Source: Candidatus Saccharimonadota bacterium (GTDB taxonomy: Bacteria; Patescibacteriota; Saccharimonadia; Saccharimonadales; Saccharimonadaceae). From it: a stretch of DNA of 32,000 bases. Below the pieces are notes generated by a model. That model did not search any database. It was not told the origin of the DNA and saw nothing but the letters and a program-made list of their open reading frames with translations. Location: positions 240,001 to 272,000 of the forward strand of contig DIRZ01000002.1 in the NCBI GenBank assembly GCA_002421785.1, in the 5' to 3' direction. Shown here in pieces: positions 1-30,211 of this stretch; positions within the stretch are counted from its first letter, which is position 1, and each line of letters starts with the position of its first letter. The position numbers were made by a program, and so were the translations under genes.

Positions 1-1626
1 ACCGCCAACCCGGCCGGTCGCTTTATCTCCCCAGCCTTGCATCTTTGCGCCCATCTTGCCAGTTGCGGCCAGGGCGCCTTTGAGCATTCCGGGCACTACG
101 AAGAGCGGCAGTGCAGTGGCGCCAAGCGCGACGATCTTCATGAATGGTTCGGATGATGTGGACAGAATTGCTGCAGCCAATGCGCTTGCGCCGAATACCG
201 CACTAACAACAGGAAATAGCATAAGTAAGCTAAAGAATAGTTTCGACCACTTTTTAAACAACGACTCGGTATTTGGTAACAGATAGGCTACAAACGCGAG
301 GGGTGCGATGACGATTAACAGCACAATGAGTGCCTGCCTGGCCAGTAGAATAAATGCGATGAGTGCAAGTGCGAAGAATGCCGCAAGGAGAACCGGTACA
401 GATACGGCAAGTAGAAGTGCCAGAACGGTCCCAATTCCAAGTGCACCGGCGAGGATTTGACCTATTAATTCGGCCCATCCACCAGAATCAGCCTTCGTGG
501 TAATAGTAATCGAACCCCCAAGCTGGTCGAATATCGCCTTTATGCCGTATCCCGCAATATTACTCAGGTCGACTGCCAGCTGGCATATAAAGAACGAAAT
601 ATTTACCAAAATGGCGGCAATGATAATTTTTGGTAACATGCGCTTAATGCCATAGTTACTAATCCCAGCACTTGTTACCTGAGAATAGATAATAATCAAG
701 AAGGCGATCACAAACATCACGTTGGCATAGTTCTTAAACACGTCCCAAGCTTTGTATGTTGTCGAATCTCTAGTGAATAGCTCCGGTTTTACTACCAGCG
801 TTCCCGCAATAAAATCGTATAACCCATCATTTAAGCTGGCGATAAAGTTCATGACAGGACAAACAATCCAGCCAATCGAGTCAACATTACACTGTGACTC
901 TTTGGTCGCGTCCGCTCCCACGACTGGTTTAGCGTCAAGCTTTCCGGTTGATATCTGGCTGGCACAGCTTAATACATTGGGCGTGGCGGTGTCTAAGTTT
1001 TCTTCGCCAGCTACGCAGTTTTTCCATGCTTCAGAACACTGGTCGCTAGTGAGCATACTGCCAGCAGTAGTTACTTTTGCACACGCCTGTATTGCTTCGC
1101 ATCGCGCCTTGAGGTAGGTGTCGGTCATCGCGGAGCAGTCTTGTTTGGTTATGTCTGTCGCGCTAATATCGAGTGGCTTAGTGGCGGCCGCGGTGTTCGC
1201 GATTGTGACGGTACCCTTGAATGCGCTGGGTGAACAATATTTTACTTCGCGCTCGCCAGTACTCGCCAGGCGATCGCTTAGTGTTCCCTTTCCGGCGTTG
1301 CTTGCATCTACTGTAAGGGTGACACTATATGTACAAATAACGTCAATCGTGTCGGTTATACCCGAGTCCCCCATTAATCGGCTATTGCTGAACGTCGGTC
1401 GACTGCCACTCAGTACAAGGGTACCTCCGTCGCCGGCAACATCTTCTCCGCCAGGCCCAAAATAGCTGTATTGAATGAGAATTTGACTACTGTTTGCCCA
1501 CTTGAGTGACATATTTGACACGGCGAACGCAGAAGGAATGAGTGGGCCGATGATATTCAACAACGAGCTTAATGCAAGGACAGTAATCGTCGTAAATAGC
1601 CCAACCCGTTTTTTTCCTATTAACAT
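1..1626 (-). CDS. TrbL/VirB6-like polytopic membrane protein, paralog A (3' end runs off the window)
   Basis: Absent from the ORF track because there is no stop in the window. I read all minus-frame codons from 1626 down to 1 by hand and found no stop. ATG at 1626. N-terminal anchor is MLIGKKRVGLFTTITVLALSSLL, followed by a Cys-rich ectodomain and a multi-TM core (GWIVCPVMNFIASL, VIAFLIIIYSQVTSAGISNYGIKRMLP, APLAFVAYLLPNTE). The core is clearly paralogous to ORF 2752..5739. Confidence 0.65.
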   Translation of the reverse strand, partial: MLIGKKRVGLFTTITVLALSSLLNIIGPLIPSAFAVSNMSLKWANSSQILIQYSYFGPGGEDVAGDGGTLVLSGSRPTFSNSRLMGDSGITDTIDVICTYSVTLTVDASNAGKGTLSDRLASTGEREVKYCSPSAFKGTVTIANTAAATKPLDISATDITKQDCSAMTDTYLKARCEAIQACAKVTTAGSMLTSDQCSEAWKNCVAGEENLDTATPNVLSCASQISTGKLDAKPVVGADATKESQCNVDSIGWIVCPVMNFIASLNDGLYDFIAGTLVVKPELFTRDSTTYKAWDVFKNYANVMFVIAFLIIIYSQVTSAGISNYGIKRMLPKIIIAAILVNISFFICQLAVDLSNIAGYGIKAIFDQLGGSITITTKADSGGWAELIGQILAGALGIGTVLALLLAVSVPVLLAAFFALALIAFILLARQALIVLLIVIAPLAFVAYLLPNTESLFKKWSKLFFSLLMLFPVVSAVFGASALAAAILSTSSEPFMKIVALGATALPLFVVPGMLKGALAATGKMGAKMQGWGDKATGRVGG

Positions 1627-1722
1627 ATAGCTATTATGCACAATTGCTTACGGTTTGGAAACACTTATGCATAATAATAACCCCCGCGAACGAGGGTTAT
1701 TAAAAGGCTGGGACCTACTAAA

Positions 1723-2646
1723 CTATTGATTGAGTAACTGAGCGTCAAGGGTTGTGAACGTATCGAGGTTCCACTTACCATCAACGACGGTTAGTTCTCC
1801 CTGAAACCTAAATAGATTGTTAAAGTCCTTAGGAAGTCCGGCATTCGTTCGCGACTCTGCAACGCCTGGAGACACCGAGCCGGCGTTGTCTGCCATAGTT
1901 ATACCAAAGGCGGTATCAGCTGCGTAGCCTGCGTCGGTAGGTTCTTTGCCATTATCGACGACTGTTTGATCTACCAGCTTAACATCTACAATAATGTCGG
2001 AGTCGATACCATTCATTTTGGCCGCCCCTTCATATCCTGCTACGGTTGCATGATAGTCAAATAACGCTGCGGTTGCCTGATCATCAAAGGTTATTTCGGT
2101 GGTGCCGGTAACTGCTTTTTTGAAAGCATTGCCATAAAAGAAGTATGCCGCAGATGGACAGCCGGTTGCCACGCTGCTTGTTGGGGCGAACTTATCACGC
2201 GGCGCTTGTTGCATATCTGCAGGGGCACAACCTGTGTTCATGTATTCGCCAATAACCACGGCAAGTCGTTGATTAACGTCTGCGGGGGTTGGGTATTCAG
2301 CGAGTGGAATTGACCATCGATCGACAAGCTCCTCATAGGTGAGAGACTCGCCACCGACAGTATAACTATATGTTTCAGTACGAAGACCATCCGGGTTATT
2401 AGCAGGATCAAGTACTTCCGGTGGATCGATACTTGATACCGGCGCTTGGGTTTCGACGGGAGTTGGTGTAGCGCTTGGGGTATATTCTCCAGGATCGGCA
2501 GGCGCAGAAGCTGAGGGTGCGGGTGCGGGAACCTCGGTTTTTGCTGGTCCACAAGCCGAAAGGCCCGTGACACCTAGAATACCAATGAGGCCGCTAGCAA
2601 CTCGGCGTTTCCATTTTTCAGCTGAAGTAGGTTTACGGTTTTCCAT
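1723..2646 (-). CDS. Secreted lipoprotein, unknown function (Pro/Ala/Thr-rich linker plus globular domain)
   Basis: 307 aa. Signal peptide with lipobox (GILGVTGLSAC followed by GPAKTE), then a low-complexity PAPAPSASAPADP linker. Has its own promoter and sits between the two VirB6-like paralogs. Confidence 0.6.
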   Translation of the reverse strand: MENRKPTSAEKWKRRVASGLIGILGVTGLSACGPAKTEVPAPAPSASAPADPGEYTPSATPTPVETQAPVSSIDPPEVLDPANNPDGLRTETYSYTVGGESLTYEELVDRWSIPLAEYPTPADVNQRLAVVIGEYMNTGCAPADMQQAPRDKFAPTSSVATGCPSAAYFFYGNAFKKAVTGTTEITFDDQATAALFDYHATVAGYEGAAKMNGIDSDIIVDVKLVDQTVVDNGKEPTDAGYAADTAFGITMADNAGSVSPGVAESRTNAGLPKDFNNLFRFQGELTVVDGKWNLDTFTTLDAQLLNQ

Positions 2647-2703
2647 AGGTTGGATGATTCTCCTTGTACGCTATTACTGTTGAGGGCACGTACTATAGTG
2701 CAG

Positions 2704-2732
2704 ATTATACACCATATGCTTAAATTTGTCAA
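2704..2732 (-). promoter_or_regulatory. Sigma70-type promoter for the lipoprotein gene
   Basis: On the minus strand: TTGACA (2732-2727), 17-nt spacer, TATAAT (2709-2704). AAGGAG lies further downstream, before ATG 2646. Confidence 0.55.
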
Positions 2733-2751
2733 TATGCTGCTTGGGCGATGA

Positions 2752-5739
2752 CTATGGACCGGTATACTTAGGGCCAGCAAACTTCTTGAGGAGCTCGACT
2801 GACTGGCTGTTGGCGCTTTGGCGAACCGTGGTGTTGCCAAGGACTTGGACGGCCATTTCGCGCATAGTATTACGTTGCACTTCAAACTTCGCCACAACAG
2901 ATGCGCGAGCTTCTGCTTCGGTGGCTGTGGGATTCGTTTCTCTGAGTGCGGCGAGCTCACCTGGCACATTATCTTCCACGAGCTTGTTAAACATGTTTTG
3001 TGTGAGCGGCGAGGAGTCGGTGTCAGCAAACAACAGCTTGAGCGACTCGGCATTCGCGGTCGCGAGCGAGTTCATCTTAATGCGACCTTCCAGCACTTCG
3101 CGGAATGAGTGGTACTGCCAGCTCGACATGCCGTTGAACTTACCGTTGATCAAGTCATCGAGAGTCTTGTCGGCAATCGCAGGTGCGATGCCGCTGATAC
3201 CGCTTTTAATCGCAGCCTGCTGAATCGTGCGGCGATATTCGAAGTTGATGTCTTTGATTTTCTCTCCATTTGCATCGAGGATGAAATCCCCCTTGTCGTC
3301 CTGCTTGTAGCCGGCGGTCATGAGCACCTTCATCTTCTGGCCATGCGAGCCGACGGTGAATATTTCATCTGCGGCCATGTCGTGAACGTGCTCATCACTT
3401 GCATCAAAGGTGTAGCTGTTGCCGCTGTCGTCATGAACGGTTGCGATACGCTTCCCCATTGCAAGGTCTTCGATTTGACCGGCGTTCAGCTTGAAGTGGC
3501 TCGAAAGCTCTTTGATTTCCGCTACGTGTTCCCCGAACTCTTTGCGATCCTTGCTGACCACTTGGGCAAGCACGGTCGTTTCGCTGCCGATGCCTGCTGC
3601 GTAGGCGCGAGCTTTTTTGCCATCGATAGTAATCGAGTCTTTGAGCATGATTTTATTGATATCGCTATTCAGTTCTTGTTCTGCCATCGACTTCGCGATA
3701 TTTGTGAGGTTTGATTCAACCTGTCCCTTGTTAATATCCCGTGCAATCGTCAGCATGCCTGAACGAGCTTGAGCGTCAACACCTTGTAGGTTGAGGATAT
3801 GTTCAGATTTGTCGCCCTGAGCAACTACTTCGGCATGCATTTTGTCAAGTTTCACCTTGGATAGGTCGGCTTGAACACTGCTTTGCTTGAGAGCAAGTTC
3901 TTGCTGTAATAGGACGCCATCGGTGCGCACAGCGTTGTTCCAGCTGGCTTCGTGCTGGTTTTCGATGCGCTTTTTGTCGCTTTCGACGGTGCGGTGGGCG
4001 CGACTGACGGCATGACCGTAGTGGCTGCCTTCAAACTCGTTTTCGACCCGCTGCTTATCGACACCAAGCATTCGCGATTGATACTCGAGCTGTCGCCCGA
4101 CGCGGGTACGCGCAAAGGTGTTATCGATTTCTTGCTTGCGGTTGGTGTTACCGCGATTCTGCGCTTCAATTGCCATGCCGTCGCGTGAGCCGGCAAAGTT
4201 ATTGTCTGCCATACCTTCGTACGCCTTCTTCCACCCCTCACGGCGGCGTCGTTTGCGGTCGATACCCTGAGTACGGCGGTTTGCCCAGGTGTTGCGTGCC
4301 TGGCCGGCGAGAATTTTCGCCTTTTTCTCCTGTGCCCTGCCCTGCGCCCAGTTTCGCGTGCGGTCAATGGCGCCCTTTTTAGGGTTGTTGACAAGGCCTG
4401 CGATTTTACCAATAAGTGAACCGCTGAACTTGATGAGTAGTGGGGTGACAACCACGGGCGCCACCATGACCGCCATACCGAGGATAATAAGGTTGAGCGA
4501 GCTGCCGGCGTTCTGGATAATTGCGAGTCCGGCAAGCTGTGCACCTGCAAATACTGTCGAGAATGCCGGGAACATCACGAGCATAGTGACGAATAAGTCC
4601 TTCCATTTGTCAAAGTATTTTTCGGTGTTTGGCAGCAAGTACGCGACGAATGCGAGTGGTGAGATGACGACCAGGCAGATGATAAGCGCCTGACGTGCCG
4701 CCATGACCAGAATGGCGACCAGTGCGGCGATAAGCACGCCTACGAGTGTAGGAATGAGCAAGATGAGCGACCCACCCAGCCCAGTAGATAGGACCGAATA
4801 GGCACCAAACCCTGCCAGCGTGGCAATGGTGCCACCTGAGAGGATGTAGGTTGTGAGGCTTGACCAAGTGACATTGTCATATTGCCCTGTTGTGTTGAGT
4901 GACGTAAAGACACCAGTAAACAGGGTGTGGATAGACTCTCCAACGACATTTGATACATCGACCGCAAGTGATGTGACCCAGAAGGATACGTTGACGAGGA
5001 TGGCGGCGACCATAAGTCGTGGCAACATTCGCTTGATGCCATAGTTGCTGATTCCGAGGCTCGTTACTTGTGAGTAGACGATTACAAGAAACGCAATGAC
5101 GAAACAAACGTTCGCGAGGTCACGAACGATTGCCCACATGCGATAAATCGAGCTGTTTGTATCACCCCTGATGGGCTGAACAATCAAGAAACCCGACAGG
5201 ATGTCGTATAGGTGGTCCATGCCCGAGGCGAGGAAGTTAACCACGGGGCAAAGGATCCACCCGATACCCTGGGTTAGGTTACCATCACAGCCTGTTGCGC
5301 TGCCGCCGGCCGCAGTCTCTAGGCTGCTGGGTGGCCCATCGGCGATACTCACTGATTTTGGTGGAGAAGGATTGCTAAAGTTGCCAGACGGAATGCCGTC
5401 GTAAAAGACGTATTGTCCTGTTGTAGCGGTTTTTGCATCACCAGATGTAAGGATAAAATATGTTTTGTTTGCGGCGGTATCGACAAACTGGTAACCACTT
5501 GTGCTGCTTGGGAGGCCCGGGGGTAGTTTGTCGGGGTTCGAGCCTGTTGTGGCGAGAATGGTAAACGTTTTACTGTCGTAGGTGAGGCTGTTGCCGTTCC
5601 GTGTGGCATCGGCAGCAAGTACAGGGGTTGTAAAGACGGTAAGTACCGAAAATATGGCCACCATAAGGGATGCGGCCAAAGTGGTAATACGTCGCTGGCG
5701 ATACCTACCCAGCGAGAACTTTTTTGGAAGATCCCACAT
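2752..5739 (-). CDS. TrbL/VirB6-like polytopic membrane protein, paralog B, with a ~520-aa charged C-terminal extension
   Basis: 995 aa. N-terminal TM anchor, ~150-aa ectodomain, then a multi-TM core sharing long blocks with paralog A (GWILCPVVNFLASG, VIAFLVIVYSQVTSLGISNYGIKRMLP, SPLAFVAYLLPNTE). A long Arg/Lys/Glu-rich soluble tail follows. Confidence 0.7.
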   Translation of the reverse strand: MWDLPKKFSLGRYRQRRITTLAASLMVAIFSVLTVFTTPVLAADATRNGNSLTYDSKTFTILATTGSNPDKLPPGLPSSTSGYQFVDTAANKTYFILTSGDAKTATTGQYVFYDGIPSGNFSNPSPPKSVSIADGPPSSLETAAGGSATGCDGNLTQGIGWILCPVVNFLASGMDHLYDILSGFLIVQPIRGDTNSSIYRMWAIVRDLANVCFVIAFLVIVYSQVTSLGISNYGIKRMLPRLMVAAILVNVSFWVTSLAVDVSNVVGESIHTLFTGVFTSLNTTGQYDNVTWSSLTTYILSGGTIATLAGFGAYSVLSTGLGGSLILLIPTLVGVLIAALVAILVMAARQALIICLVVISPLAFVAYLLPNTEKYFDKWKDLFVTMLVMFPAFSTVFAGAQLAGLAIIQNAGSSLNLIILGMAVMVAPVVVTPLLIKFSGSLIGKIAGLVNNPKKGAIDRTRNWAQGRAQEKKAKILAGQARNTWANRRTQGIDRKRRRREGWKKAYEGMADNNFAGSRDGMAIEAQNRGNTNRKQEIDNTFARTRVGRQLEYQSRMLGVDKQRVENEFEGSHYGHAVSRAHRTVESDKKRIENQHEASWNNAVRTDGVLLQQELALKQSSVQADLSKVKLDKMHAEVVAQGDKSEHILNLQGVDAQARSGMLTIARDINKGQVESNLTNIAKSMAEQELNSDINKIMLKDSITIDGKKARAYAAGIGSETTVLAQVVSKDRKEFGEHVAEIKELSSHFKLNAGQIEDLAMGKRIATVHDDSGNSYTFDASDEHVHDMAADEIFTVGSHGQKMKVLMTAGYKQDDKGDFILDANGEKIKDINFEYRRTIQQAAIKSGISGIAPAIADKTLDDLINGKFNGMSSWQYHSFREVLEGRIKMNSLATANAESLKLLFADTDSSPLTQNMFNKLVEDNVPGELAALRETNPTATEAEARASVVAKFEVQRNTMREMAVQVLGNTTVRQSANSQSVELLKKFAGPKYTGP

Positions 5740-5796
5740 ATCAGTTTTATACTAACACTTTTCACTCAAAAAGTCAATGCATATACAGGGTAAAAC

Positions 5797-5826
5797 TTTA
5801 CTTTTATCAGGGTGTGCGTGTACACT
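5797..5826 (+). promoter_or_regulatory. Candidate promoter for the pilin-like operon
   Basis: TTTACT (5797-5802), 18-nt spacer, TACACT (5821-5826). AAGGA lies 9 nt before ATG 5847. The match is weak. Confidence 0.3.
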
Positions 5827-5846
5827 AAGGGCTAAGGATATTTACC

Positions 5847-6296
5847 ATGAAATACAAATACATATTCGCCCCACTTTTTGCCGGTATTGTGGCTATCGCC
5901 CTGGGGCAAAACGTCAACGCATTGCACGCAGTGCAAACACCCGTAACCGCGGTTTCATACCCGCCTACTTCCTTCGCTGTCGAAGGTGTAAGTTGCGCCA
6001 TACTTCCCCAAGATATCTGTAACGCAGCAACCCAAAAACCCAACGGGAGTGACGTACAGCAGACGGGTATATTCCAGCTACTGACTTTTGTGCTTCGCAT
6101 CATGACTGCACTCGTCGGTATCGCTGCAGTTGGGGCGCTCATCTACGCGGGGGTTCTGTATTCGAGCGCCGGCGGCAGCAATGAGCAGGTTGCGAAATCG
6201 AAAAAACTTATCACCGACACCGTCATTGGCATTGTCGCGTATGCACTAATGTTTTTCGCACTAAACTGGCTTATTCCAGGGGGAGTTATCGGGTAA
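5847..6296 (+). CDS. VirB2/TrbC-like (T4SS pilin-like) small membrane protein P1
   Basis: 149 aa. Signal peptide, one Cys pair (VSCAILPQDIC), then TM helix, polar loop (YSSAGGSNEQVAKSKKLI) and a second TM helix. Confidence 0.6.
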   Translation: MKYKYIFAPLFAGIVAIALGQNVNALHAVQTPVTAVSYPPTSFAVEGVSCAILPQDICNAATQKPNGSDVQQTGIFQLLTFVLRIMTALVGIAAVGALIYAGVLYSSAGGSNEQVAKSKKLITDTVIGIVAYALMFFALNWLIPGGVIG

Positions 6297-6715
6297 TGAT
6301 TAAAAAGTCTTACATCGCCATTATGTTGGTACTAACAATGCTTGGTACAGTGGTAACATTCGGGCAGACCACTGCGGCTGCCTGTCCTCCAGCTGAGTTC
6401 CTGGGAATAAACGCATGGTATAAGGGACTGCAAGATGCGAACTGTGGTGTTGCGATGAAGACAAACGGCAGTGCGGACGAGGTTCGTGTATTTGTGACCA
6501 CTATTGCACTCAACGTGTTGCAAGCAGGCCTGGCGATTGTCGCATATGTCACCGTATTCTTTATTATAAAGGGTGGATTCATGTATATGACGAGCGCTGG
6601 CGCGCAGGATGGAATGGCGAGCGCGAAGAAAACGATCACCAATGCAATTATTGGCTTGGTGATTGCCGTATTTGCCGCATCTATTGTTAACGCTATCGCA
6701 GGAGCCATTAAATGA
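6296..6715 (+). CDS. T4SS pilin-like small membrane protein P2
   Basis: 139 aa. The start overlaps the P1 stop (TAATG). Signal peptide, Cys pair (AACPP...DANC), TM-loop-TM with loop YMTSAGAQDGMASAKKTI. Confidence 0.6.
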   Translation: MIKKSYIAIMLVLTMLGTVVTFGQTTAAACPPAEFLGINAWYKGLQDANCGVAMKTNGSADEVRVFVTTIALNVLQAGLAIVAYVTVFFIIKGGFMYMTSAGAQDGMASAKKTITNAIIGLVIAVFAASIVNAIAGAIK

Positions 6716-7011
6716 TTCCCTACTACTTTCTTCAATTCGCTGCGCTTATCGATGCTAACCAAGTCGGCATTCCAAAAGCGACGAGTGACCAGAAGGTACT
6801 GGTGCAAAACATATTGTATCCAACATATTTCTGGGCCAGTGCTATCGCGGTTATCGTCATTATTGCGGCAGGGTTCTTTTATGTCACGAGCAACGGCAAT
6901 CCACAGCAGGTGACCCGGGCGAAAAACGCTATACTTGGTGCCGTTGTTGGCTTCATCGTGGTATTACTGGCGTTTACGATCACCTTTATCGTGATAGGAG
7001 GCCTAAAATGA
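6712..7011 (+). CDS. T4SS pilin-like small membrane protein P3 (no obvious signal peptide)
   Basis: 99 aa. ATGA overlap with P2. TM-loop-TM with loop FYVTSNGNPQQVTRAKNAI. The N-terminus lacks a classical signal peptide and has no Cys. Confidence 0.5.
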   Translation: MIPYYFLQFAALIDANQVGIPKATSDQKVLVQNILYPTYFWASAIAVIVIIAAGFFYVTSNGNPQQVTRAKNAILGAVVGFIVVLLAFTITFIVIGGLK

Positions 7012-7385
7012 GACAAAAACTGATTGCCGCCCTACTTGTGGTTGTAGGGATAGTTGCACTGTTTGAGCAGCCCGCCCTCGCCGTTGACATCATTCCTAAT
7101 TGCCAAACTACTGGCGGTGCATCCTGTAGTATTGTAAAAGAAGACCGCCTGAACTATATGACAGGGGCAACGGGTATATGGGGTATCATACAGCTTGTCA
7201 TGACGATTCTCGGCGCCGTTGCAGTAATCATGATTGTGATTGGCGGCATTAAGTATACAATTTCACAAGGCGATAGCTCGGCGGTGACCAGTGCAAAGAA
7301 TACAATTCTGTATTCGGTGATTGGACTCGTTGTCGCGATATTCGCTACGGCTATCATTGGGTTCGTAAGTAGTTATTTTGCATAA
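7008..7385 (+). CDS. T4SS pilin-like small membrane protein P4
   Basis: 125 aa. ATGA overlap with P3. Signal peptide ends PALA, Cys pair NCQTTGGASC, core GGIKYTISQGDSSAVTSAKNTILY between two TM helices. Confidence 0.65.
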   Translation: MRQKLIAALLVVVGIVALFEQPALAVDIIPNCQTTGGASCSIVKEDRLNYMTGATGIWGIIQLVMTILGAVAVIMIVIGGIKYTISQGDSSAVTSAKNTILYSVIGLVVAIFATAIIGFVSSYFA

Positions 7386-7398
7386 AGGAGAAAACACA

Positions 7399-7770
7399 GT
7401 GAAAAACATCAAACAACTTATCATTGCGTCAATGCTTGTACTTGGTATTGGCTTCATGGCTACCCCTGCCTATGCAGCGTGTACAAGCGGCGTGGACTGT
7501 ATTAACGATGGCCTAGAGGCAACGGGCGGTACGGGAGGATCGAAGGATATCGGCCCCATTATTAAAGACATCGTAAATGCCCTGCTGTTTATTTTGGCGG
7601 CGGTTGCGGTGATTATGATTGTGATCGGTGGTATCCGTTATACGATTTCACAGGGCGACAGCTCATCTGTGACATCAGCCAAGAATACCATTCTGTACGC
7701 GGTTATCGGACTTGTTGTGGCAATATTGGCCTACGCCATCGTCAACTTTGTTGTCGACCGTCTGACATAA
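7399..7770 (+). CDS. T4SS pilin-like small membrane protein P5
   Basis: The ORF track starts at TTG 7378. GTG 7399 lies 8 nt after AAAGGAG (7384-7390) and gives a normal signal peptide (MKNIKQLIIASMLVLGIGFMATPAYA). Cys pair ACTSGVDC, core GGIRYTISQGDSSSVTSAKNTILY. Confidence 0.65.
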   Translation: MKNIKQLIIASMLVLGIGFMATPAYAACTSGVDCINDGLEATGGTGGSKDIGPIIKDIVNALLFILAAVAVIMIVIGGIRYTISQGDSSSVTSAKNTILYAVIGLVVAILAYAIVNFVVDRLT

Positions 7771-7784
7771 AGTTTCTGCTACTG

Positions 7785-7813
7785 TTAACAATTAGTGCAA
7801 CATCTGGTATATA
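7785..7813 (+). promoter_or_regulatory. Candidate internal promoter for P6
   Basis: TTAACA (7785-7790), 17-nt spacer, TATATA (7808-7813), located in the 87-nt P5-P6 gap. AAAGGAA precedes ATG 7858. Confidence 0.4.
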
Positions 7814-7857
7814 TAGTATCAAGAGTTAATCCAATTTGAAGAAAGGAATGGATAAAC

Positions 7858-8265
7858 ATGAAGATTAGTATTAAAAAACACCTGCTAACACTGCTTGCAG
7901 TTCCTGCCTTCGCACTTAGCGTTGCGGGTGTTGTTGCTGTACCTACGTACGCAGCCTGTGACACCTCTGGAGGCCTGAGCGCTGCCGCTGAATGTGCAAA
8001 GAGTGAAGATCAGCCAGCAGACCTGTTTGGAGACGGCGGTGTGTTCCAGGTCATCACCGATGTACTCCTGTTCATTATCGGTGCAGTATCAGTCGTGATG
8101 ATCATTTTCGGCGGCATTAAGTATACAATTTCACAAGGCGACAGCACTGCAGTGACGAGCGCAAAGAACACCATTCTTTACGCTGTTATCGGTCTTGTTG
8201 TAGCAATCCTTGCCTACGCGGTGATTCACTACGTTATCGGTGCGCTCGCAACACCAGCTGAGTAG
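7858..8265 (+). CDS. T4SS pilin-like small membrane protein P6
   Basis: 135 aa. Signal peptide ends PTYA, Cys pair ACDTSGGLSAAAEC, core GGIKYTISQGDSTAVTSAKNTILY between two TM helices. Confidence 0.65.
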   Translation: MKISIKKHLLTLLAVPAFALSVAGVVAVPTYAACDTSGGLSAAAECAKSEDQPADLFGDGGVFQVITDVLLFIIGAVSVVMIIFGGIKYTISQGDSTAVTSAKNTILYAVIGLVVAILAYAVIHYVIGALATPAE

Positions 8266-8289
8266 GGCTATTACGGGAATAATACAAAG

Positions 8290-8315
8290 CTGCGGGAAAC
8301 CGCAGTTTTTGTTTT
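8290..8315 (+). terminator. Rho-independent terminator of the pilin array
   Basis: Hairpin ctgcgg-gaaa-ccgcag followed by tttttgtttt. Confidence 0.7.
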
Positions 8316-8336
8316 GGCCCGCCCCACCTGTTCGAA

Positions 8337-8366
8337 CAAAATAAATAACCCTGCACGATGCAGGGC
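8337..8366 (-). terminator. Rho-independent terminator of hsp20
   Basis: On the minus strand, hairpin ccctgcatcgtgcaggg followed by ttatttatttt. Confidence 0.65.
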
Positions 8367-8386
8367 TACTTACTCGCATTGGTTGA

Positions 8387-8863
8387 TTACTGAATCGTAA
8401 TCTTTTTAGCTTGCTCTTGCTTGACCTTCGAGAAGGTGATGCTCAGAACGCCATCTTTAAGTACGGCCGCAACTTCATCTTCTTTTACTGGTACGGGTAG
8501 CGCTAGCGTGCGGCTAAATTCGCCCCAGTAGCATTCCTGGATGTGCCAGTTTGTTGCTGCGGAGTCGTCGCCGCTACTAAGTGTACCGCTGATAGTCAGG
8601 ATGCCGTCAGAAATGCTGACATCTAGGTCTTCTTTGTTAACACCGGCTGTTCGAGCTTTTACGACAAGCTGTTCGTCGGTTTCGTAGACGTCAACAGCGA
8701 GCTGTCCAGGAAAGTCATCTTCCCCATCGGCCCAGCTGGCGTCGTCGTTCATTGGTTCTTGTGGGGCAGTTACACTGGTAGCCGCCATGCTGTCGTCATC
8801 GTTCAGGAACGCTGCAGCGAGTTCATCTTCGATCAATAGATCATCGTTTTGCTTACGGGCCAT
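8387..8863 (-). CDS. Hsp20/alpha-crystallin family small heat-shock protein
   Basis: Alpha-crystallin domain (LAVDVYETDEQLVVKARTAGVNKEDLDVSISDGILTISG ... FSRTLALPVPVKEDEVAAVLKDGVLSITF). Start trimmed to ATG 8863, which has GGAGG 6 nt upstream and lies downstream of the promoter at 8909-8937. The track's 198-aa version would start upstream of that promoter. Confidence 0.85.
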   Translation of the reverse strand: MARKQNDDLLIEDELAAAFLNDDDSMAATSVTAPQEPMNDDASWADGEDDFPGQLAVDVYETDEQLVVKARTAGVNKEDLDVSISDGILTISGTLSSGDDSAATNWHIQECYWGEFSRTLALPVPVKEDEVAAVLKDGVLSITFSKVKQEQAKKITIQ

Positions 8864-8908
8864 GATATCCTCCACTTTCTCATTGGCTTTGACAATTAGT
8901 CTGGGTAT

Positions 8909-8937
8909 ATTATAGCTAACACCTGGGGTATAATCAA
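8909..8937 (-). promoter_or_regulatory. hsp20 promoter
   Basis: On the minus strand: TTGATT (8937-8932), 17-nt spacer, TATAAT (8914-8909). It overlaps a plus-strand TATAAT at 8929-8934 that could serve comFC. Confidence 0.55.
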
Positions 8938-8967
8938 CAAATAACGATTTGAGACGTAAAAAATACA

Positions 8968-9630
8968 ATGCAGATAAGCCCATTTACACTGATTGCTCCC
9001 CACTACTGTTGTTCTTGCGGTGAAATTGGAGCACTATTGTGTGAGTATTGTAAATATAACATCGAATCAGAGTCTTTGGAACAATGCATTGTGTGTGAGC
9101 GCTTGGTTAGTGGAAATGAAGCCTTGTGCAAGGACTGTGATGTCCCCTACGCCCATGCCTGGTGTGTGGGTAAAAAGTCGGACGAACTAGAACGGCTCAT
9201 TACGGCATATAAGTTTAGTCGAGCAAAGGCGGCCCATCGCTCGCTAGCACAACTCCTCGCGCAGACGGTCCCCACACTTCCCCCAGACACTATCGTTACC
9301 GCCGTTCCAACGGTCGCGGCGCATATTCGCGAGCGCGGGTATGACCATGCCGAACTAATTGCGAGGCAATTTGCCCAGCTCGGCGGGTATGAATACAAAC
9401 GAACGCTCAAACGGCTAACGACGGCACGACAGCGCGGGGCGACGCGTCGTGAGCGTGAAGCACAAGCGAAAGTAGCTTTTGGGCCCGTCGCACCGCTCAC
9501 GGGAACGTATTTGTTGGTGGATGATGTACTAACGACAGGGGCAACGCTTAAATATGCGGCGGGCGCATTATTGGCCGCAGGTGCGAAGGAAGTATGGGTT
9601 GGCGTGATTGCACGGCAACCCCTAGAATGA
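8968..9630 (+). CDS. comFC: ComF family protein (ComFC-type competence protein, PRTase fold)
   Basis: 220 aa. N-terminal paired CxxC motifs (CCSCG...CEYC, CIVCE...CKDC) and a C-terminal PRPP-loop (YLLVDDVLTTGATL). Confidence 0.75.
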   Translation: MQISPFTLIAPHYCCSCGEIGALLCEYCKYNIESESLEQCIVCERLVSGNEALCKDCDVPYAHAWCVGKKSDELERLITAYKFSRAKAAHRSLAQLLAQTVPTLPPDTIVTAVPTVAAHIRERGYDHAELIARQFAQLGGYEYKRTLKRLTTARQRGATRREREAQAKVAFGPVAPLTGTYLLVDDVLTTGATLKYAAGALLAAGAKEVWVGVIARQPLE

Positions 9631-9642
9631 TGGCGGTATCTC

Positions 9643-9651
9643 TGGTATAAT
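9643..9651 (+). promoter_or_regulatory. Extended -10 promoter element for tRNA-Ser(UGA)
   Basis: TGG-TATAAT, 16 nt upstream of the mature tRNA 5' end. Confidence 0.5.
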
Positions 9652-9667
9652 CCAAAAGACAATTTAT

Positions 9668-9755
9668 GGAGAGGTGACCGAGTGGTTTAAGGTAACGGTC
9701 TTGAAAACCGTCGTGGGGCAACTCACCGCGAGTTCGAATCTCGCCCTCTCCGCCA
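9668..9755 (+). tRNA. tRNA-Ser (anticodon UGA), CCA encoded
   Basis: Acceptor GGAGAGG/CCTCTCC, anticodon stem acggt/accgt with loop cTTGAaa, long variable arm, T-loop GTTCGAATC, 3' GCCA. Confidence 0.9.
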
Positions 9756-9763
9756 TGCAATGA

Positions 9764-9784
9764 CCAGCCGAACGGCTGGTTTTT
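9764..9784 (+). terminator. Hairpin plus T-tract after tRNA-Ser(UGA)
   Basis: ccagcc-gaac-ggctgg followed by ttttt. Confidence 0.65.
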
Positions 9785-9787
9785 GCA

Positions 9788-9930
9788 TGGCGGAGTGTGT
9801 TTTTGAACTCGCGGGTTTTGCAGGTATGCAAAACATACCGCTGTGTTCGGTGGAGTGAAGGCGGAAACGAGAGCTTGCTCTCAGGTTTCGCCAAGCAGAA
9901 AAGCGTAGCGCCACCTCGCCCTCTCCGCCA
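9788..9930 (+). ncRNA. tRNA-Ser trailer element, copy A (tRNA-derived structured element; candidate ncRNA or att scar)
   Basis: Contains two long hairpins. The arms of hairpin 1 are an inverted and a direct copy of the T-arm of the adjacent tRNA. The last 16 nt (9915-9930) are identical to the tRNA 3' end (9740-9755). See findings. Confidence 0.45.
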
Positions 9931-9934
9931 CATT

Positions 9935-9965
9935 AAAAAAGACTTGGTACATGCCAAGCCTTTTT
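9935..9965. terminator. Bidirectional terminator (trailer element A on plus, pilin P7 on minus)
   Basis: aaaaaa-gacttggtacatgccaagcc-ttttt: a hairpin flanked by an A-tract and a T-tract. Confidence 0.7.
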
Positions 9966-9994
9966 AATTTTGGAATACGTAACCAAGTGGATCG

Positions 9995-10417
9995 CTAGCG
10001 AGTCGATGCCCCATAGGCGCTCGTACCGGCAGTATTGGACGCGGTTGGCACAAAGCTGTTAACGACAAAGTTGACCGCTGCGTAGGCAAGGATGGCAATA
10101 ATCACACCAACAAGCGCGTAAAGAATCGTGTTTTTGGCTGCTTGTACCTGGGAGGCATCTCCACCAGAGATAACATAGCGGAGGCCACCAATAACAATCA
10201 TGATAACGGCGATAGCACCCACAATAAAGAGCAAAACGCTACTGATTTTTGAAAACACACCTGTATCGCCGAAAAGATCATTCGGCTGCTGGGCGCCACG
10301 TGCGGATGCGGCGCCATCGGCGATGGTTCCGACGGCATGAGCCTGGGCAACATCAAGCGCGAGAACAGTAAAAGCTGCGAGGACATATGTGCTAAATAAT
10401 TTTAGTGAACGTTTCAT
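9995..10417 (-). CDS. T4SS pilin-like small membrane protein P7 (dispersed seventh paralog)
   Basis: Start trimmed to ATG 10417, with AGGAG 7 nt upstream. Signal peptide MKRSLKLFSTYVLAAFTVLALDVAQAHA, core GGLRYVISGGDASQVQAAKNTILY between two TM helices. No Cys pair; Ser/Thr/Ala-rich C-terminal tail. Confidence 0.65.
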   Translation of the reverse strand: MKRSLKLFSTYVLAAFTVLALDVAQAHAVGTIADGAASARGAQQPNDLFGDTGVFSKISSVLLFIVGAIAVIMIVIGGLRYVISGGDASQVQAAKNTILYALVGVIIAILAYAAVNFVVNSFVPTASNTAGTSAYGASTR

Positions 10418-10511
10418 TGTTTGCTCCTTGGGTTTATGCAGTTTGCATCTATCTACCAGTATACACGCATTATAAAAACCTGCCATACCCCTGTACGTCG
10501 AGGGGTGATTA

Positions 10512-10520
10512 TGCTACAAT
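10512..10520 (+). promoter_or_regulatory. Extended -10 promoter element for tRNA-Ser(GCU)
   Basis: TGC-TACAAT, 32 nt upstream of the tRNA. Confidence 0.45.
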
Positions 10521-10552
10521 TTCAAAAGCCCATACGTTCCAACACTCGATAC

Positions 10553-10645
10553 GGAGGAGTACCCAAGTGGCTGAAGGGGACGGTTTGCTAAATCGTTAGT
10601 ATGGGGAGACCTGTAGCGGGAGTTCGAATCTCCCCTCCTCCGCCA
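10553..10645 (+). tRNA. tRNA-Ser (anticodon GCU), CCA encoded
   Basis: Acceptor GGAGGAG/CTCCTCC, anticodon loop tTGCTaa, long variable arm, GTTCGAATC T-loop. Confidence 0.9.
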
Positions 10646-10651
10646 AGAAAT

Positions 10652-10677
10652 GACGAGCCCATCTGGGCTCGTTTTTT
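10652..10677 (+). terminator. Rho-independent terminator after tRNA-Ser(GCU)
   Basis: acgagccc-atct-gggctcgt followed by ttttt. Confidence 0.75.
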
Positions 10678-10719
10678 CCTGTCTTTCACCACTAATGGCG
10701 CTCATGCTATACTAGCGGT

Positions 10720-11430
10720 ATGCAACCACAACAGCCCCAGGACCAGCAGCCCCAGGACCAGCAGCCCGAGACATGGCAAACCCCGGCACAGGCGACGCCT
10801 CAGGCGCCAATTGAAGTTCCCCAAAGTGTGCCTACTGCTTGGGAATCATCTGTTGCGGAGCCTGCGGCACCCCAAGCGCCAGAGCAGACATATGAACAGC
10901 CCGAAGGGCCGAACGCCACGGCAGAAGGCACCGAAACCCCTACTGACGAGACAGCCGATTCGCCCGATGACGGCGCAGTGATTCGCTGGCAAGCAGCTGA
11001 GTATTTGCACCAGGACCAATCACCACTGTGGTTTGTGGTGATGGGTATTATCGTTGTGGTGTTGATGGCGATTGCGTACCTATGGATGAACTCTATCACC
11101 TTTGCTATTTTGATACCGGTCATGGCGGTGGCACTTGTGGTGTATGTAAAACGACCACCAGCAACCAACAACTACACGCTGAGTCGCAAGGGTATTCATA
11201 TTAATGACCAGCTGTACCCTTTTGACACCTTTAAATCATTTGGCGTCATTTCACGTGGCGGGAACCACTCTGTCGTCCTGACGCCGCGCAAGCGTTTTCA
11301 GCTGGGACATACTATTTACTTTAGCGAAGAGCTTGGTGAACAGATTGTTGACATGTTCGCAGCACGGTTACCGATGAAAGACGTTTCACCGGATATGATT
11401 GATACGCTTTTGTCTAAACTACGCCTCTAG
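10720..11430 (+). CDS. Membrane protein with Gln/Pro-rich N-terminus, two TM helices and a small C-terminal domain; unknown function
   Basis: 236 aa. Tandem PQDQQ repeat, TM pair (LWFVVMGIIVVVLMAIAYLW / FAILIPVMAVALVVYV). The ATG lies 6 nt after TGC-TATACT (10705-10713), suggesting a leaderless transcript. Confidence 0.6.
   Translation: MQPQQPQDQQPQDQQPETWQTPAQATPQAPIEVPQSVPTAWESSVAEPAAPQAPEQTYEQPEGPNATAEGTETPTDETADSPDDGAVIRWQAAEYLHQDQSPLWFVVMGIIVVVLMAIAYLWMNSITFAILIPVMAVALVVYVKRPPATNNYTLSRKGIHINDQLYPFDTFKSFGVISRGGNHSVVLTPRKRFQLGHTIYFSEELGEQIVDMFAARLPMKDVSPDMIDTLLSKLRL
10732..10770 (+). repeat. 15-nt in-frame tandem repeat (2.6 copies)
   Basis: cagccccaggaccag occurs at 10732-10746 and 10747-10761, followed by a partial copy. 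It encodes the PQDQQ units. Confidence 0.8.
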
Positions 11431-11433
11431 CGC

Positions 11434-11462
11434 TTGCTCGTACCCCTTATTTGTGCTATTAT
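11434..11462 (+). promoter_or_regulatory. Promoter for tRNA-Arg
   Basis: TTGCTC (11434-11439), 17-nt spacer ending in TGC, TATTAT (11457-11462). Confidence 0.45.
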
Positions 11463-11503
11463 TTCTCTTTGTTAGCCAGGTTAACTGGCAGGCAGTGGTA
11501 TGC

Positions 11504-11580
11504 GCACCCGTAGCTCAGCTGGATAGAGTGCTTGCTTGCGGAGCAAGAGGTCGTACGTTCGAATCGTATCGGGTGTACCA
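11504..11580 (+). tRNA. tRNA-Arg (anticodon GCG as read), CCA encoded
   Basis: Acceptor GCACCCG/CGGGTGT, D-arm GCTCAGCTGGATAGAGT, anticodon stem cttgc/gcaag with loop ttGCGga, T-loop GTTCGAATC. Confidence 0.8.
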
Positions 11581-11587
11581 AATAATG

Positions 11588-11615
11588 AAGGTTTCCTATC
11601 AGGAAGCCTTTTTTA
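11588..11615 (+). terminator. Terminator after tRNA-Arg
   Basis: aaggtttcc-tatc-aggaagcctt followed by ttttt. The stem has one mismatch. Confidence 0.55.
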
Positions 11616-11620
11616 TTGGA

Positions 11621-12088
11621 TTAAGAGAGATTTTTTGGGACAAACATGTTTCGCAACGAAAGAAAATCGTCTTTGAGTGATGCGCTATCATCAACGATCG
11701 ATTCGATATAGGAGCTATTTTTACCCCTTATTACATCCTTGGCTATCAACATAAAAACGATTGGAATAGGTGTTGCCCGAACTTCGGCAACCCGTATGAT
11801 TTTATCGGAAAAGTCCTTAATCTGTGACCGTTCCGTAATAGTGAGTGGGCGGGGAAAGAGACGACCAGATAGGTACCAGGCCGCTGCGGCTAGTGCGACA
11901 ATGACAAGCGTAACCGGCATTAATACGACGAGCAGGAGCCACCAGAACGGGTGCACCCACCCGCCTAGATAAAAAGTAAGGAGGTAAAGGGCTGTAATAA
12001 CTGACCCGACAATCCAAGCAGCGGGGATAAAAGCGCGACGAAATACGGTCGCTGTCAGGGCGCGGAATGTTTGGATTGTTGCCTTCAT
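11621..12088 (-). CDS. Small membrane protein, unknown function
   Basis: Trimmed to ATG 12088 (155 aa) because the upstream part of the 232-aa track ORF runs through trailer element B and a terminator. Two TM helices. TACACT lies 7 nt upstream of the ATG, suggesting a leaderless start. Confidence 0.5.
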   Translation of the reverse strand: MKATIQTFRALTATVFRRAFIPAAWIVGSVITALYLLTFYLGGWVHPFWWLLLVVLMPVTLVIVALAAAAWYLSGRLFPRPLTITERSQIKDFSDKIIRVAEVRATPIPIVFMLIAKDVIRGKNSSYIESIVDDSASLKDDFLSLRNMFVPKNLS

Positions 12089-12140
12089 ACTCCCTAGTGT
12101 ACTTGATTGCACGGCACGGTCATGTGATATTTCGCACAAT

Positions 12141-12166
12141 AAAACGACCCTTGGTAGGGTCGTTTT
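12141..12166. terminator. Terminator closing the tRNA-Ser(CGA)/trailer unit
   Basis: aaaacgaccc-ttggta-gggtcgtttt. On the minus strand the hairpin is followed by ttttatt. Confidence 0.65.
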
Positions 12167-12169
12167 ATG

Positions 12170-12316
12170 TGGCGGAGAGGAAAAGATATCGCTCCGCTCC
12201 TCCGCTTGCTGGACGGAAAAACACCCTCGGTACTTTTCCGTCTGCGCGGCGCTCCGCCGAACTCCTGGCTCGCTTTGCCCGTCGGGTAAACCCCAGGAGT
12301 TCAAGTTCCTTTGTCG
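12170..12316 (-). ncRNA. tRNA-Ser trailer element, copy B
   Basis: Same two-hairpin architecture as copy A. A 10-bp perfect inverted repeat gaactcctgg/ccaggagttc (12259-12268 / 12293-12302) is derived from the T-arm of tRNA-Ser(CGA). The terminal 12 nt (12170-12181) are identical to the tRNA 3' end (12356-12367). Confidence 0.45.
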
Positions 12317-12355
12317 CATTAAATATACCTATCGCAAGGATAGATATATTTAATG

Positions 12356-12447
12356 TGGCGGAGAGGAGGAGATTCGAACTCCTGGTGCAGTTTTAGCCAC
12401 ACACCGCTTTTCGAGAGCGGCACCTTCAACCACTCAGACACCTCTCC
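12356..12447 (-). tRNA. tRNA-Ser (anticodon CGA), CCA encoded
   Basis: Reverse complement gives GGAGAGG...ccgct-cTCGAaa-agcgg, a long variable arm, GTTCGAATC and CCTCTCCGCCA. Confidence 0.9.
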
Positions 12448-20651: not shown

Positions 20652-21501
20652 TACAGCGGATATAGCCACCGCCCTTCACGAGCTCTTTAATCTCAGGATG
20701 CAAGAGGGTAAGGCCGCGGGCTGTTAACTCGGCGGATAACTCGGGCGCGTGGGCGCTCATAACGACTGTTGAGCCCGTCGAAACCAGGTTGCACGCAAAG
20801 GCTTCTTTGGCTTCGTGTTCGCTGACGATGATTTTATCGACTTCGTCTAGCTCTGCTAGAATTTGCTGGCTTTCATCGGTAAATGCCTCGGGACAGTATG
20901 CAATCAGACCCTTCTGGCCGTTTTCTGGGGCTTTGATAATACTTAGTGCCAGGTCGATATCATAGTAAAAACTGTCAGGCCAGCCAGATGATGCATTTGT
21001 GACGGGCTGCCCATGGATATCCAGCTGTGGTTTCGCTTGGAGCTGTATGCGGCGATACTCTAATATATCCGCCGCCATTGTCTGCGCCTCCACATCACTG
21101 CGGTAGTTACTTCCGCAGAACAGTAGGTCGCCACACGGCAAGGCATCGCCCTGACCACTAAAGCGAAGGTGGGGCGGCAGCTCGAAAACCTCGATACCCA
21201 GTGCTTCGAGCGCCTGTTTGGCATGAGGCTGTTCGCTTTCACGGGCTGTGGGCAGATGAGCGAGCACAGCCTTGTTGCCACGTACGAGTGCCCAGTTGGC
21301 GGTATACACGCCGTCCTGGCTAGTAGCAGGCGAGGGCACGCCTATGACGGTAACGCCCGCTTGCTGCAGTAGCTCTCGAATGTGGGTATGTTCGGCTTGT
21401 GCCTGTGAAAGGTCAATTGACTCCTGGTGATAGTATGGGTTTATTGGCTGCTCATTGCTAAAGTGCAGGGCATCAGACATGAGGACTTTTGAATTTAACA
21501 T
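20632..21501 (-). CDS. Guanidino-group modifying enzyme superfamily protein (amidinotransferase / DDAH / CtlX-like)
   Basis: 289 aa. FYYDIDLAL (the hLDt-like motif) and C-terminal GGGYIRCTT containing the catalytic Cys. AAAGG precedes the ATG. Confidence 0.6.
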   Translation of the reverse strand: MLNSKVLMSDALHFSNEQPINPYYHQESIDLSQAQAEHTHIRELLQQAGVTVIGVPSPATSQDGVYTANWALVRGNKAVLAHLPTARESEQPHAKQALEALGIEVFELPPHLRFSGQGDALPCGDLLFCGSNYRSDVEAQTMAADILEYRRIQLQAKPQLDIHGQPVTNASSGWPDSFYYDIDLALSIIKAPENGQKGLIAYCPEAFTDESQQILAELDEVDKIIVSEHEAKEAFACNLVSTGSTVVMSAHAPELSAELTARGLTLLHPEIKELVKGGGYIRCTTLTLE

Positions 21502-30119: not shown

Positions 30120-30211
30120 GGAGAGGTGTCCGAGTGGTTGAAGGAGCACGCCTGGAAAGTGTGTGTGCGGGGCAACTCGTACCGTGAGTTCGAATCTCAT
30201 CCTCTCCGCCA
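30120..30211 (+). tRNA. tRNA-Ser (anticodon GGA), CCA encoded
   Basis: GGAGAGG...cacgc-cTGGAaa-gtgtg, long variable arm, GTTCGAATC, CCTCTCCGCCA. Confidence 0.9.

Follow-up and report, generated by a model that had tools for sequence, protein, structure and literature searches.

Type IV secretion systems (T4SSs) of Saccharibacteria (class Saccharimonadia, Patescibacteria) have been described before, and the locus studied here, at positions 1-10417 of a 32,000-nucleotide stretch of contig DIRZ01000002.1 (assembly GCA_002421785.1, positions 240,001 to 272,000; "the window" hereafter), is another species' copy of that known locus and no new kind of system. In Nanosynbacter lyticus TM7x and other Saccharibacteria, McLean 2020 described a region that encodes VirB4, VirB6, VirB2 and, in what was called a "novel array", between four and six small proteins with signal peptides, and noted GntX/ComF near this region (PMC7427843). 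Using transposon sequencing (Tn-seq), Wang 2023 (Cell) found that the T4SS locus is essential for the epibiotic growth of Southlakia epibionticum ML1 (PMC10633639); before this, no T4SS had been reported as essential to its own bacterium (PMC12857230).

From a survey of Patescibacteria genomes, Quinonero-Coronel 2025 placed the VirB4 of these bacteria beside the monoderm mating-pair formation class MPF-FATA and counted 441 VirB2 arrays, each of 2-11 genes, with Saccharimonadia and Microgenomatia especially rich in them; the VirB2-like array genes average 25% identity and relaxases are generally absent (PMC12102498). A 2025 FEMS review likewise covers the system, its pilin arrays and the missing relaxase, and it speculated on a pilus-like conduit that exchanges signals or takes up host molecules (PMC12857230). 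Among the ways in which ultrasmall epibionts might exploit their hosts, this system is a leading candidate, and it is an important open problem in the field; it is perhaps the only T4SS of Gram-positive type to have pilins. With the locus already described, surveyed over thousands of genomes and tested by Tn-seq, what we add is modest and comparative.

Results

The window holds one half of a chromosomal T4SS

The minus strand carries a partial polytopic membrane protein, a lipoprotein and a 995-amino-acid (aa) polytopic protein, and six small open reading frames (ORFs) are transcribed divergently from the plus strand. The array is followed by genes for Hsp20 and a ComFC-like protein, a tRNA-Ser and then a seventh small ORF on the minus strand. 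An earlier note, made from the letters of this DNA, had described part of a T4SS-like apparatus with an expanded set of pilins, and we found every feature that it listed in the place that it gave, including the seventh copy at 9995-10417. We put the probability at roughly 85% that positions 1-10417, taken as a whole, are best explained as the pilin-proximal half of a chromosomal T4SS in a saccharibacterium.

The gene order is the same as in ML1 (SEML1_0007-0024). In both genomes a peptidase, VirB4, a protein of ~295 aa, PrgI, a VirB6-like protein, a small exported protein and a second VirB6-like protein are followed by six divergent pilins, Hsp20, ComFC, tRNA-Ser and the seventh pilin on the opposite strand. 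VirB4 has 612 aa in both, and sizes differ for the pilins (103-185 aa in ML1 versus 99-149 aa here) and for the VirB6-like proteins (998 and 1088 aa in ML1 versus 813 and 995 aa here). A glycosyltransferase gene lies between tRNA-Ser and the seventh pilin in ML1, whereas the window has none. The ML1 locus is near dnaA, dnaN and recF, an origin-proximal position. Orthology with ML1 was assigned on position, size and shared family matches. According to the supplementary tables of Wang 2023, ML1 cannot lose any of the six array pilins, either of the VirB6-like proteins, PrgI, VirB4, the peptidases or Hsp20, but it tolerates the loss of the small protein encoded between the VirB6 genes, of ComFC and of the seventh pilin (PMC10633639).

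The rest of the apparatus lies beyond coordinate 1. The earlier note had proposed to look there for an ATPase, and we found VirB4 on a public contig (L001) that is 100% identical to window positions 1-7271. This contig continues with the rest of the first VirB6-like gene, a PrgI/VirB3-like protein (41.5 bits), a TraC/TrsD-like protein of 295 aa, a VirB4 of 612 aa (P-loop_TraG 98.9 bits, AAA_10, DUF87) and a large M23-type peptidase; in L001 coordinates, VirB4 starts ~4.1 kb past the last base common to the contig and the window. A VirB4-family ATPase is therefore encoded alongside other T4SS components. Because L001 carries the PrgI/VirB3-like and TraC-like proteins, VirB4 and the M23 peptidase at this place, the locus is a complete chromosomal T4SS truncated by the window edge and not an ATPase-less remnant.

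This also settles which part of a previous negative holds. The note had seen no relaxase, coupling protein or VirB4 in the window; the lack of VirB4 is an effect of the window edge, but a Pfam scan found no relaxase and no coupling protein among the ORFs of either the 32-kb window or a 7-kb flank. No integrase was found in the same 32 kb and 7 kb. The marks of a conjugative element, a linked relaxase and coupling protein together with an integrase or mobile context, are thus missing from the sequence covered, in agreement with the view that this is not an ordinary conjugative element.

Six divergent pilin-like genes

The six array genes, P1 to P6, lie on the plus strand. P1 (5847-6296, +; 149 aa) has a signal peptide, a Cys pair and a two-helix hairpin, and scores 24.8 bits against the T4SS_pilin family PF18895, whose gathering cut-off is 26.6 bits. 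P2 (6296-6715, +; 139 aa, 34.2 bits) starts within the stop of P1 as TAATG, and ATGA overlaps couple P3 (6712-7011, +; 99 aa, 36.3 bits) to P2 and P4 (7008-7385, +; 125 aa, 44.4 bits) to P3. P5 (7399-7770, +; 123 aa from GTG 7399, 51.4 bits) is followed, after an 87-nucleotide gap, by the last gene of the array, P6 (7858-8265, +; 135 aa, 35.1 bits). An intrinsic-terminator-like hairpin (8286-8309, +) with a 10-bp stem, 5 GC pairs and a T-rich tail closes the pilin operon. The start of P5 is most likely GTG 7399, which has AAGGAG 8 nucleotides upstream, rather than the TTG 7378 of the mechanically called ORF. With this start P5 does not overlap P4, and the overlaps within the array are those of P1/P2, P2/P3 and P3/P4.

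All seven small proteins align with one another, and the C-terminal two-helix hairpin is conserved in each. The gathering score of PF18895 is passed by six of the seven, with P1 1.8 bits short. A signal peptide followed by two C-terminal hydrophobic helices with a polar loop, which is the VirB2 architecture, is seen in 6/7; P3 has the helices only. The common plan reported in the earlier note therefore holds for the hairpin in every copy and is less uniform elsewhere, since the Cys pair is present in five of the seven copies (P3 and P7 lack it) and the loop motif Y-T-I-S-Q-G-D-S is confined to P4-P6. Against the TrbC/VirB2 family PF04956, P5 alone matches (26.2 bits, E 9.6e-6), below the cut-off of 27.9. 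P3 (38.1 bits, cut-off 40) and P5 (36.5 bits) also match the NCBIfam model Mbov_0395, a pilin-like conjugal transfer protein of a Mycoplasma integrative conjugative element (ICE). Collectively, these profile searches favour the VirB2/TrbC pilin reading that had been proposed. A phage origin was rejected in the absence of any PHROG match, and no phage or holin family was matched by the small proteins, holins having been named beforehand as an example of an unrelated family to which they might belong.

P3 is short, has no recognisable signal peptide and is the copy nearest to the Mycoplasma ICE model; its role may be distinct from that of the other pilins. P4-P7 form a subfamily with 40-60% identity (49-60% for P4 versus P5/P6). 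P1-P3 are each distinct, with 23-35% identity to the other copies except for P2/P5 (41%). Recent gene conversion among P4-P6 was considered and rejected, as the 140-nucleotide hairpin segment has ~75% DNA identity between P4 and P5/P6.

Each array position has its own orthologs

ORFs were called in 44 related loci, all 44 of which come from Saccharibacteria genomes, and searched with profiles built from the window. We found exactly six pilin genes in every complete array (39/39), always divergent from the gene of the larger VirB6-like protein (VirB6B) and followed by Hsp20 and ComFC. The best cross-genome match always fell on the same array position for P1, P2, P3 and P5 (100% of comparisons), nearly always for P6 (99.7%) and less often for P4 (78%). 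Positional orthologs of P1 are present in 38/38 other genomes, and the position-3 pilin is the short member in 39 genomes, with 96-122 aa (median 97). VirB6B of the window is 31-65% identical to that of its relatives, and positional orthology persists even between the window genome, which is of environmental type, and oral lineages in which VirB6B is 31-35% identical.

The six array genes are thus paralogs of ancient origin that do not stand in for one another, and we propose that each supplies its own part (a major, minor, base or tip subunit) of a single structure. The constant number of six, the positional orthology and the essentiality of each gene in ML1 point to six non-redundant subunits rather than to interchangeable or antigenically variable pilins. 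The alternative filaments suggested in the earlier note are a poor fit with such strict positional orthology. We did not find the fixed six-gene positional orthology stated in McLean 2020, Wang 2023, Quinonero-Coronel 2025 or the 2025 FEMS review.

The full gene order including the VirB4 module is present in two of the loci (L003 and L004), and the part from VirB6B through the array to Hsp20 and ComFC in 39 genomes. In the oral G1-type loci (L008-L046; for example L009, 12427-21730), the array and VirB6B are followed by genes for an ABC-2 transporter, a methyltransferase and ribonucleotide reductase. An 827-aa ORF downstream of VirB6B in L009 was a candidate for the other VirB6-like paralog and was rejected, because it is this ribonucleotide reductase.

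Two extended VirB6/TrbL-like paralogs

Paralog A (1-1626, -) is present with its N-terminal 542 aa; the whole protein, also an extended VirB6, has 813 aa, and its gene runs past coordinate 1. Paralog B (2752-5739, -) is an extended VirB6 of 995 aa. From its translation, paralog A consists of a signal or transmembrane segment, a Cys-rich ectodomain and a polytopic core. Hydropathy divides paralog B into an N-terminal transmembrane segment, an ectodomain, a polytopic core at ~150-450 and a hydrophilic, charged C-terminal region of ~530 aa. The positional ortholog of paralog A (SEML1_0011) and the ortholog of paralog B (SEML1_0013) are both essential in ML1 (PMC10633639).

Over 267 aa the two paralogs share 46% identity (E 5e-72), with the alignment confined to the polytopic core. 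Their N-terminal ectodomains do not align, and residues 98-256 of paralog A contain 10 Cys versus 2 in the matching region of B. Both the shared blocks and the unrelated ectodomains, Cys-rich in paralog A, had been read from the sequence before and are confirmed here.

Precomputed matches to TrbL_3 (PF19590) are found on both paralogs (for A, on contig L001) and on most of 88 homologs. This family was never returned by the current Pfam-A scan, even at E up to 1; it was perhaps dropped from the Pfam copy in use or fused with another family. The Pfam family TrbL (PF04610) is matched by 11 of the 45 aligned family members, with a best E of 4.4e-7. We also modelled the core of paralog B with AlphaFold2 and obtained an all-helical structure (predicted local distance difference test, pLDDT, 81.4); a Foldseek search of this model against the PDB returned R388 TrwI/VirB6 chains as all of its top five. 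The link of the large proteins to TrbL/VirB6 is made through family membership and a weakly matching predicted fold.

The C-terminal 525 aa of paralog B (2752-4329) have no Pfam domain. This extension is hydrophilic and rich in Lys, Arg, Glu and Gln, and its ML1 counterpart has been assigned ARM-repeat-like ECOD domains (PMC10633639).

A lipoprotein gene between the VirB6 genes

The gene between the paralogs (1723-2646, -) encodes a lipoprotein of 307 aa, in which the lipobox LSAC with Cys32 is followed by a Pro/Ala/Ser-rich linker and a fast-evolving globular C-terminal domain. A sigma-70-type consensus promoter, TTGACA-17-TATAAT (2704-2732, -), lies in the intergenic gap at 2647-2751. It matches the consensus at 12/12 positions, as had been reported for this gene, and is the sole perfect match in 1-10700. 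A stem-loop, AACCCTCG-TTCG-CGGGGGTT, is found near 1679-1698, downstream of the gene. The lipoprotein gene, placed between both VirB6 genes, seems to be transcribed as a unit of its own.

The lipoprotein belongs to no Pfam, NCBIfam or PHROG family and has only 5 homologs among 5.8 billion proteins. Its structure model, built from an alignment of 6 sequences, reached a pLDDT of 35.6 and is unusable, and its profile had no relevant match among PDB sequences. The positional counterpart SEML1_0012 is non-essential and is annotated as NTF2-like, with the ECOD assignment e4ec6D1 (Wang 2023 Table S2, PMC10633639). From this assignment of its counterpart, the lipoprotein may be a VirB8-like T4SS component. 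The structure 4EC6 is that of pIP501 TraM, a VirB8-like protein. For the system as a whole, a VirB8 component is missing according to one paper, Quinonero-Coronel 2025, which detected none in the ML1 proteome, and listed as present in another (PMC12102498, PMC12857230).

The seventh pilin and the chromosomal surroundings

P7 (9995-10417, -; 140 aa, signal peptide, PF18895 36.8 bits) is a dispersed copy flanked by tRNA-Ser(tga) and tRNA-Ser(gct), with AAGGAG 7 nucleotides upstream of its ATG at 10417. It scores best against P6 orthologs and is thus nearest to the P6 orthogroup; it is also present in loci L003, L004 and L006. Its counterpart in ML1, SEML1_0024, is annotated as a pilin and is non-essential (PMC10633639).

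Between the array and P7 lie the genes for a small heat-shock protein, Hsp20 (8387-8983, -; Pfam HSP20, 66.9 bits), and for a ComFC/GntX-like protein with a phosphoribosyltransferase domain (8968-9630, +; Pfam Pribosyltran). Both accompany the array in every complete related locus, and in the window their 5′ ends overlap by 16 nucleotides. In ML1, Hsp20 (SEML1_0020) is essential and the ComF-family protein (SEML1_0021, K02242) is non-essential (PMC10633639). Hsp20 might chaperone the hairpin proteins.

The remainder of the window has a housekeeping character, with genes for ValRS, TsaD, Mur ligases, FemAB, PGI and ABC transporters and five tRNAs. A search of the intergenic gaps with Rfam returned these five tRNAs and no other RNA element. 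They are located at 9668-12447 and 30120-30211 and comprise four tRNA-Ser genes, with the anticodons tga, gct, cga and gga, and a tRNA-Arg gene (gcg). Four of the five, three for tRNA-Ser and the one for tRNA-Arg, are packed into 2.8 kb, interspersed with the seventh pilin and with two ORFs for small membrane proteins (10720-11430 and 11621-12319) that have no family match. Outside the T4SS, an amidinotransferase-fold protein (20632-21501, -; Pfam DDAH_eukar, 41.9 bits) adjoins the FemAB-family gene; it may be tied to arginine catabolism, which is important in Saccharibacteria.

Discussion

What the comparisons show is gene identity, synteny and positional orthology, to which ML1 adds essentiality; the filament, its heteromeric make-up and the substrate are inferences. 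The mechanism that we propose is based on the R388 model, in which VirB2 is recruited on a VirB6 platform and VirB4 drives the process. The pilin-like proteins, six of the seven with cleavable signal peptides, would be inserted into the cytoplasmic membrane through Sec and would rest there as two-helix hairpins. VirB4 would then pull them from the membrane, and they would assemble on a platform of the two extended VirB6 proteins (VirB6A/VirB6B). One or more peptidases would open the cell wall locally to let the assembly pass, and the resulting surface structure, a short pilus or a conduit, would engage the actinobacterial host. We infer a non-DNA substrate because there is no relaxase and no linked coupling protein: DNA conjugation is unlikely, and the job of the system is probably an exchange of proteins or small molecules or a host contact needed for epibiotic growth. 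The idea of a host-contact or uptake device, also raised in the earlier note, is already in print (PMC10633639, PMC12857230).

As to the composition of this structure, we offer the following tentatively, as a possibility that we would not yet call probable. The six pilins would be obligate, non-interchangeable subunits (base, shaft and a tip that replaces the missing VirB5) of one heteromeric surface structure on a platform of two VirB6 proteins, with the strongly promoted lipoprotein as a divergent, dispensable VirB8-like accessory. If this is true, a T4SS pilus made of a defined set of several pilins would be known for the first time, and in a monoderm. Published work instead sees sequence-divergent variants that perhaps serve host adaptation.

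Several observations weigh against the T4SS reading or against its pilus version. A profile of the seven pilins retrieved nothing relevant from the PDB sequences, and a profile of the VirB6 core retrieved only low-complexity coiled-coil matches, none of them relevant. In the current Pfam, paralog A reaches 12.7 bits against TrbL (PF04610; E 0.11, cut-off 25.9) and paralog B has no match to this family. The structural matches to TrwI are statistically weak (probability 0.92, E 0.14, TM-score 0.34-0.39, 12-14% identity). The counts of positional orthologs are not independent of one another, as many of the 39 genomes are close oral relatives, and essentiality was measured in ML1 and not in the organism of the window. 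In the oral G1-type genomes, the 10 kb beyond VirB6B contain no further T4SS gene, be it a second VirB6, a PrgI or a VirB4; the contiguous layout is therefore not universal, and the T4SS genes of oral Saccharibacteria appear to be split over at least two chromosomal sites. Furthermore, the papers cited here report no T4SS filament in a Patescibacterium, a pilus is treated only as a possibility (PMC12857230), and MPF-FATA (Gram-positive-type) T4SSs normally have no pili (PMC12102498).

This last point leads to the main rival of the pilus, in which the small hairpin proteins are membrane-embedded parts of a contact-dependent channel without a filament, comparable to the small VirB3-like or 'pilin-like' membrane proteins known from conjugation systems of wall-less and Gram-positive bacteria. 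We regard such a channel as possible, again short of probable. It would accord with a VirB4 lineage that resembles MPF-FATA, a class without pili (PMC12102498), with the proximity of P3 and P5 to the Mbov_0395 model from the wall-less mycoplasmas and with the lack of a signal peptide in P3, and six fixed, individually essential paralogs would suit a membrane complex as well as a filament. It accounts less well for the fact that six of the seven proteins pass the T4SS_pilin cut-off and that most of them have a cleavable signal peptide and a variable, Cys-paired N-terminal segment, exposed as in VirB2; the structure-based published annotation also calls them pilins (PMC10633639). A different question is whether the pilins are interchangeable variants, which would provide alternative filaments, antigenic variation or a varied host range, an idea put forward for Bartonella and Anaplasma with their arrays of VirB2 paralogs. 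The low identity within the array and the variable N-terminal segments would fit such variation, a dispensable, dispersed seventh copy could be a spare, and Quinonero-Coronel 2025 suggested that versatility might help adaptation to different host strains (PMC12102498). However, variants of this kind would hardly be kept at six in 39/39 arrays, with each position its own orthogroup while VirB6B has diverged to ~31-35% identity, nor would all six be individually essential in ML1, which indicates that they are not redundant. There are also no long, near-identical DNA tracts for recombinational switching, and we consider this explanation unlikely.

Two further explanations concern the nature of the locus itself. 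An ordinary ICE with its relaxase and coupling protein outside the examined sequence seems very improbable to us, even though VirB4, the VirB3-like and VirB6-like proteins and a cell-wall hydrolase make up a conjugation-type mating-pair module and VirD4-like genes occur elsewhere in many Patescibacteria genomes (PMC12102498). The locus and its Hsp20/ComFC flanks are conserved in the related Saccharibacteria examined, with tRNA-Ser next to them in both the window and ML1, and it is set among housekeeping genes; neither the 32 kb of the window nor the 7 kb of flank yielded an integrase, a relaxase or a coupling protein. ML1 needs the system for growth but can dispense with a distant coupling-protein homolog; among 109 relaxase homologs in 103 Patescibacteria genomes, only 15 are near virB4 (PMC12102498). 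Least probable of all is that the array encodes Sec-exported effector or toxin subunits secreted by the T4SS, after the pertussis ptx/ptl example (McLean 2020). This was suggested by the signal peptides and by the position of the array beside T4SS apparatus genes, but the original comparison gave 11% amino-acid identity to pertussis toxin S1 (PMC7427843), every protein of the array has two hydrophobic membrane helices at its C-terminal end, matches to pilin hidden Markov models were found, and later papers re-annotated the array proteins as VirB2-like.

Among known systems, the monoderm MPF-FATA systems (pCF10 Prg, pIP501 Tra, pGO1 Trs and the Mycoplasma ICEs) share with the window system VirB4, a PrgI/VirB3-like protein, a VirB6-like protein and a large wall hydrolase, and neither has an outer-membrane core complex. 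They differ in that they lie on mobile elements, carry a relaxase and a coupling protein and have no VirB2 pilins, whereas the system described here is chromosomal, with seven VirB2-like genes and two extended VirB6 paralogs. The vir-homolog T4SSs of Rickettsiales (Anaplasma, Ehrlichia, Rickettsia) are alike in being non-conjugative, in having multiple divergent VirB2 proteins and duplicated, extended VirB6 paralogs with large hydrophilic domains, and in belonging to obligately host-dependent bacteria with reduced genomes. In contrast, they are diderm MPF-T systems with VirB7, VirB9, VirB10, VirB11 and VirD4 and with eukaryotic targets, and the expansions are independent. The all-helical polytopic core predicted for paralog B has its best structural matches in TrwI/VirB6 of R388, whose VirB2 pilus-biogenesis platform is represented by PDB 7O3V and 8RT9, although this similarity is weak. 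The VirB6-like proteins of the window are three times longer than TrwI, with N-terminal ectodomains and a C-terminal extension of ~530 aa, and no VirB5 homolog is evident in the window system, in contrast to R388.

The closest counterparts are the ML1 locus SEML1_0006-0019, with the pilin SEML1_0024 in addition (PMC10633639), the same region of N. lyticus TM7x described by McLean 2020 (PMC7427843) and the T4SSs of the Patescibacteria clade in general. The systems of the clade are chromosomal, with an MPF-FATA-like VirB4, PrgI/VirB3, TrsD-like and VirB6 proteins, cell-wall hydrolases and no relaxase, as is the case here, and we see no qualitative difference between them and the system in the window. 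Where the two accounts part is in the meaning of the pilin array, which the published work tentatively relates to adaptation to different host strains and for which our comparison across related loci proposes fixed subunit roles.

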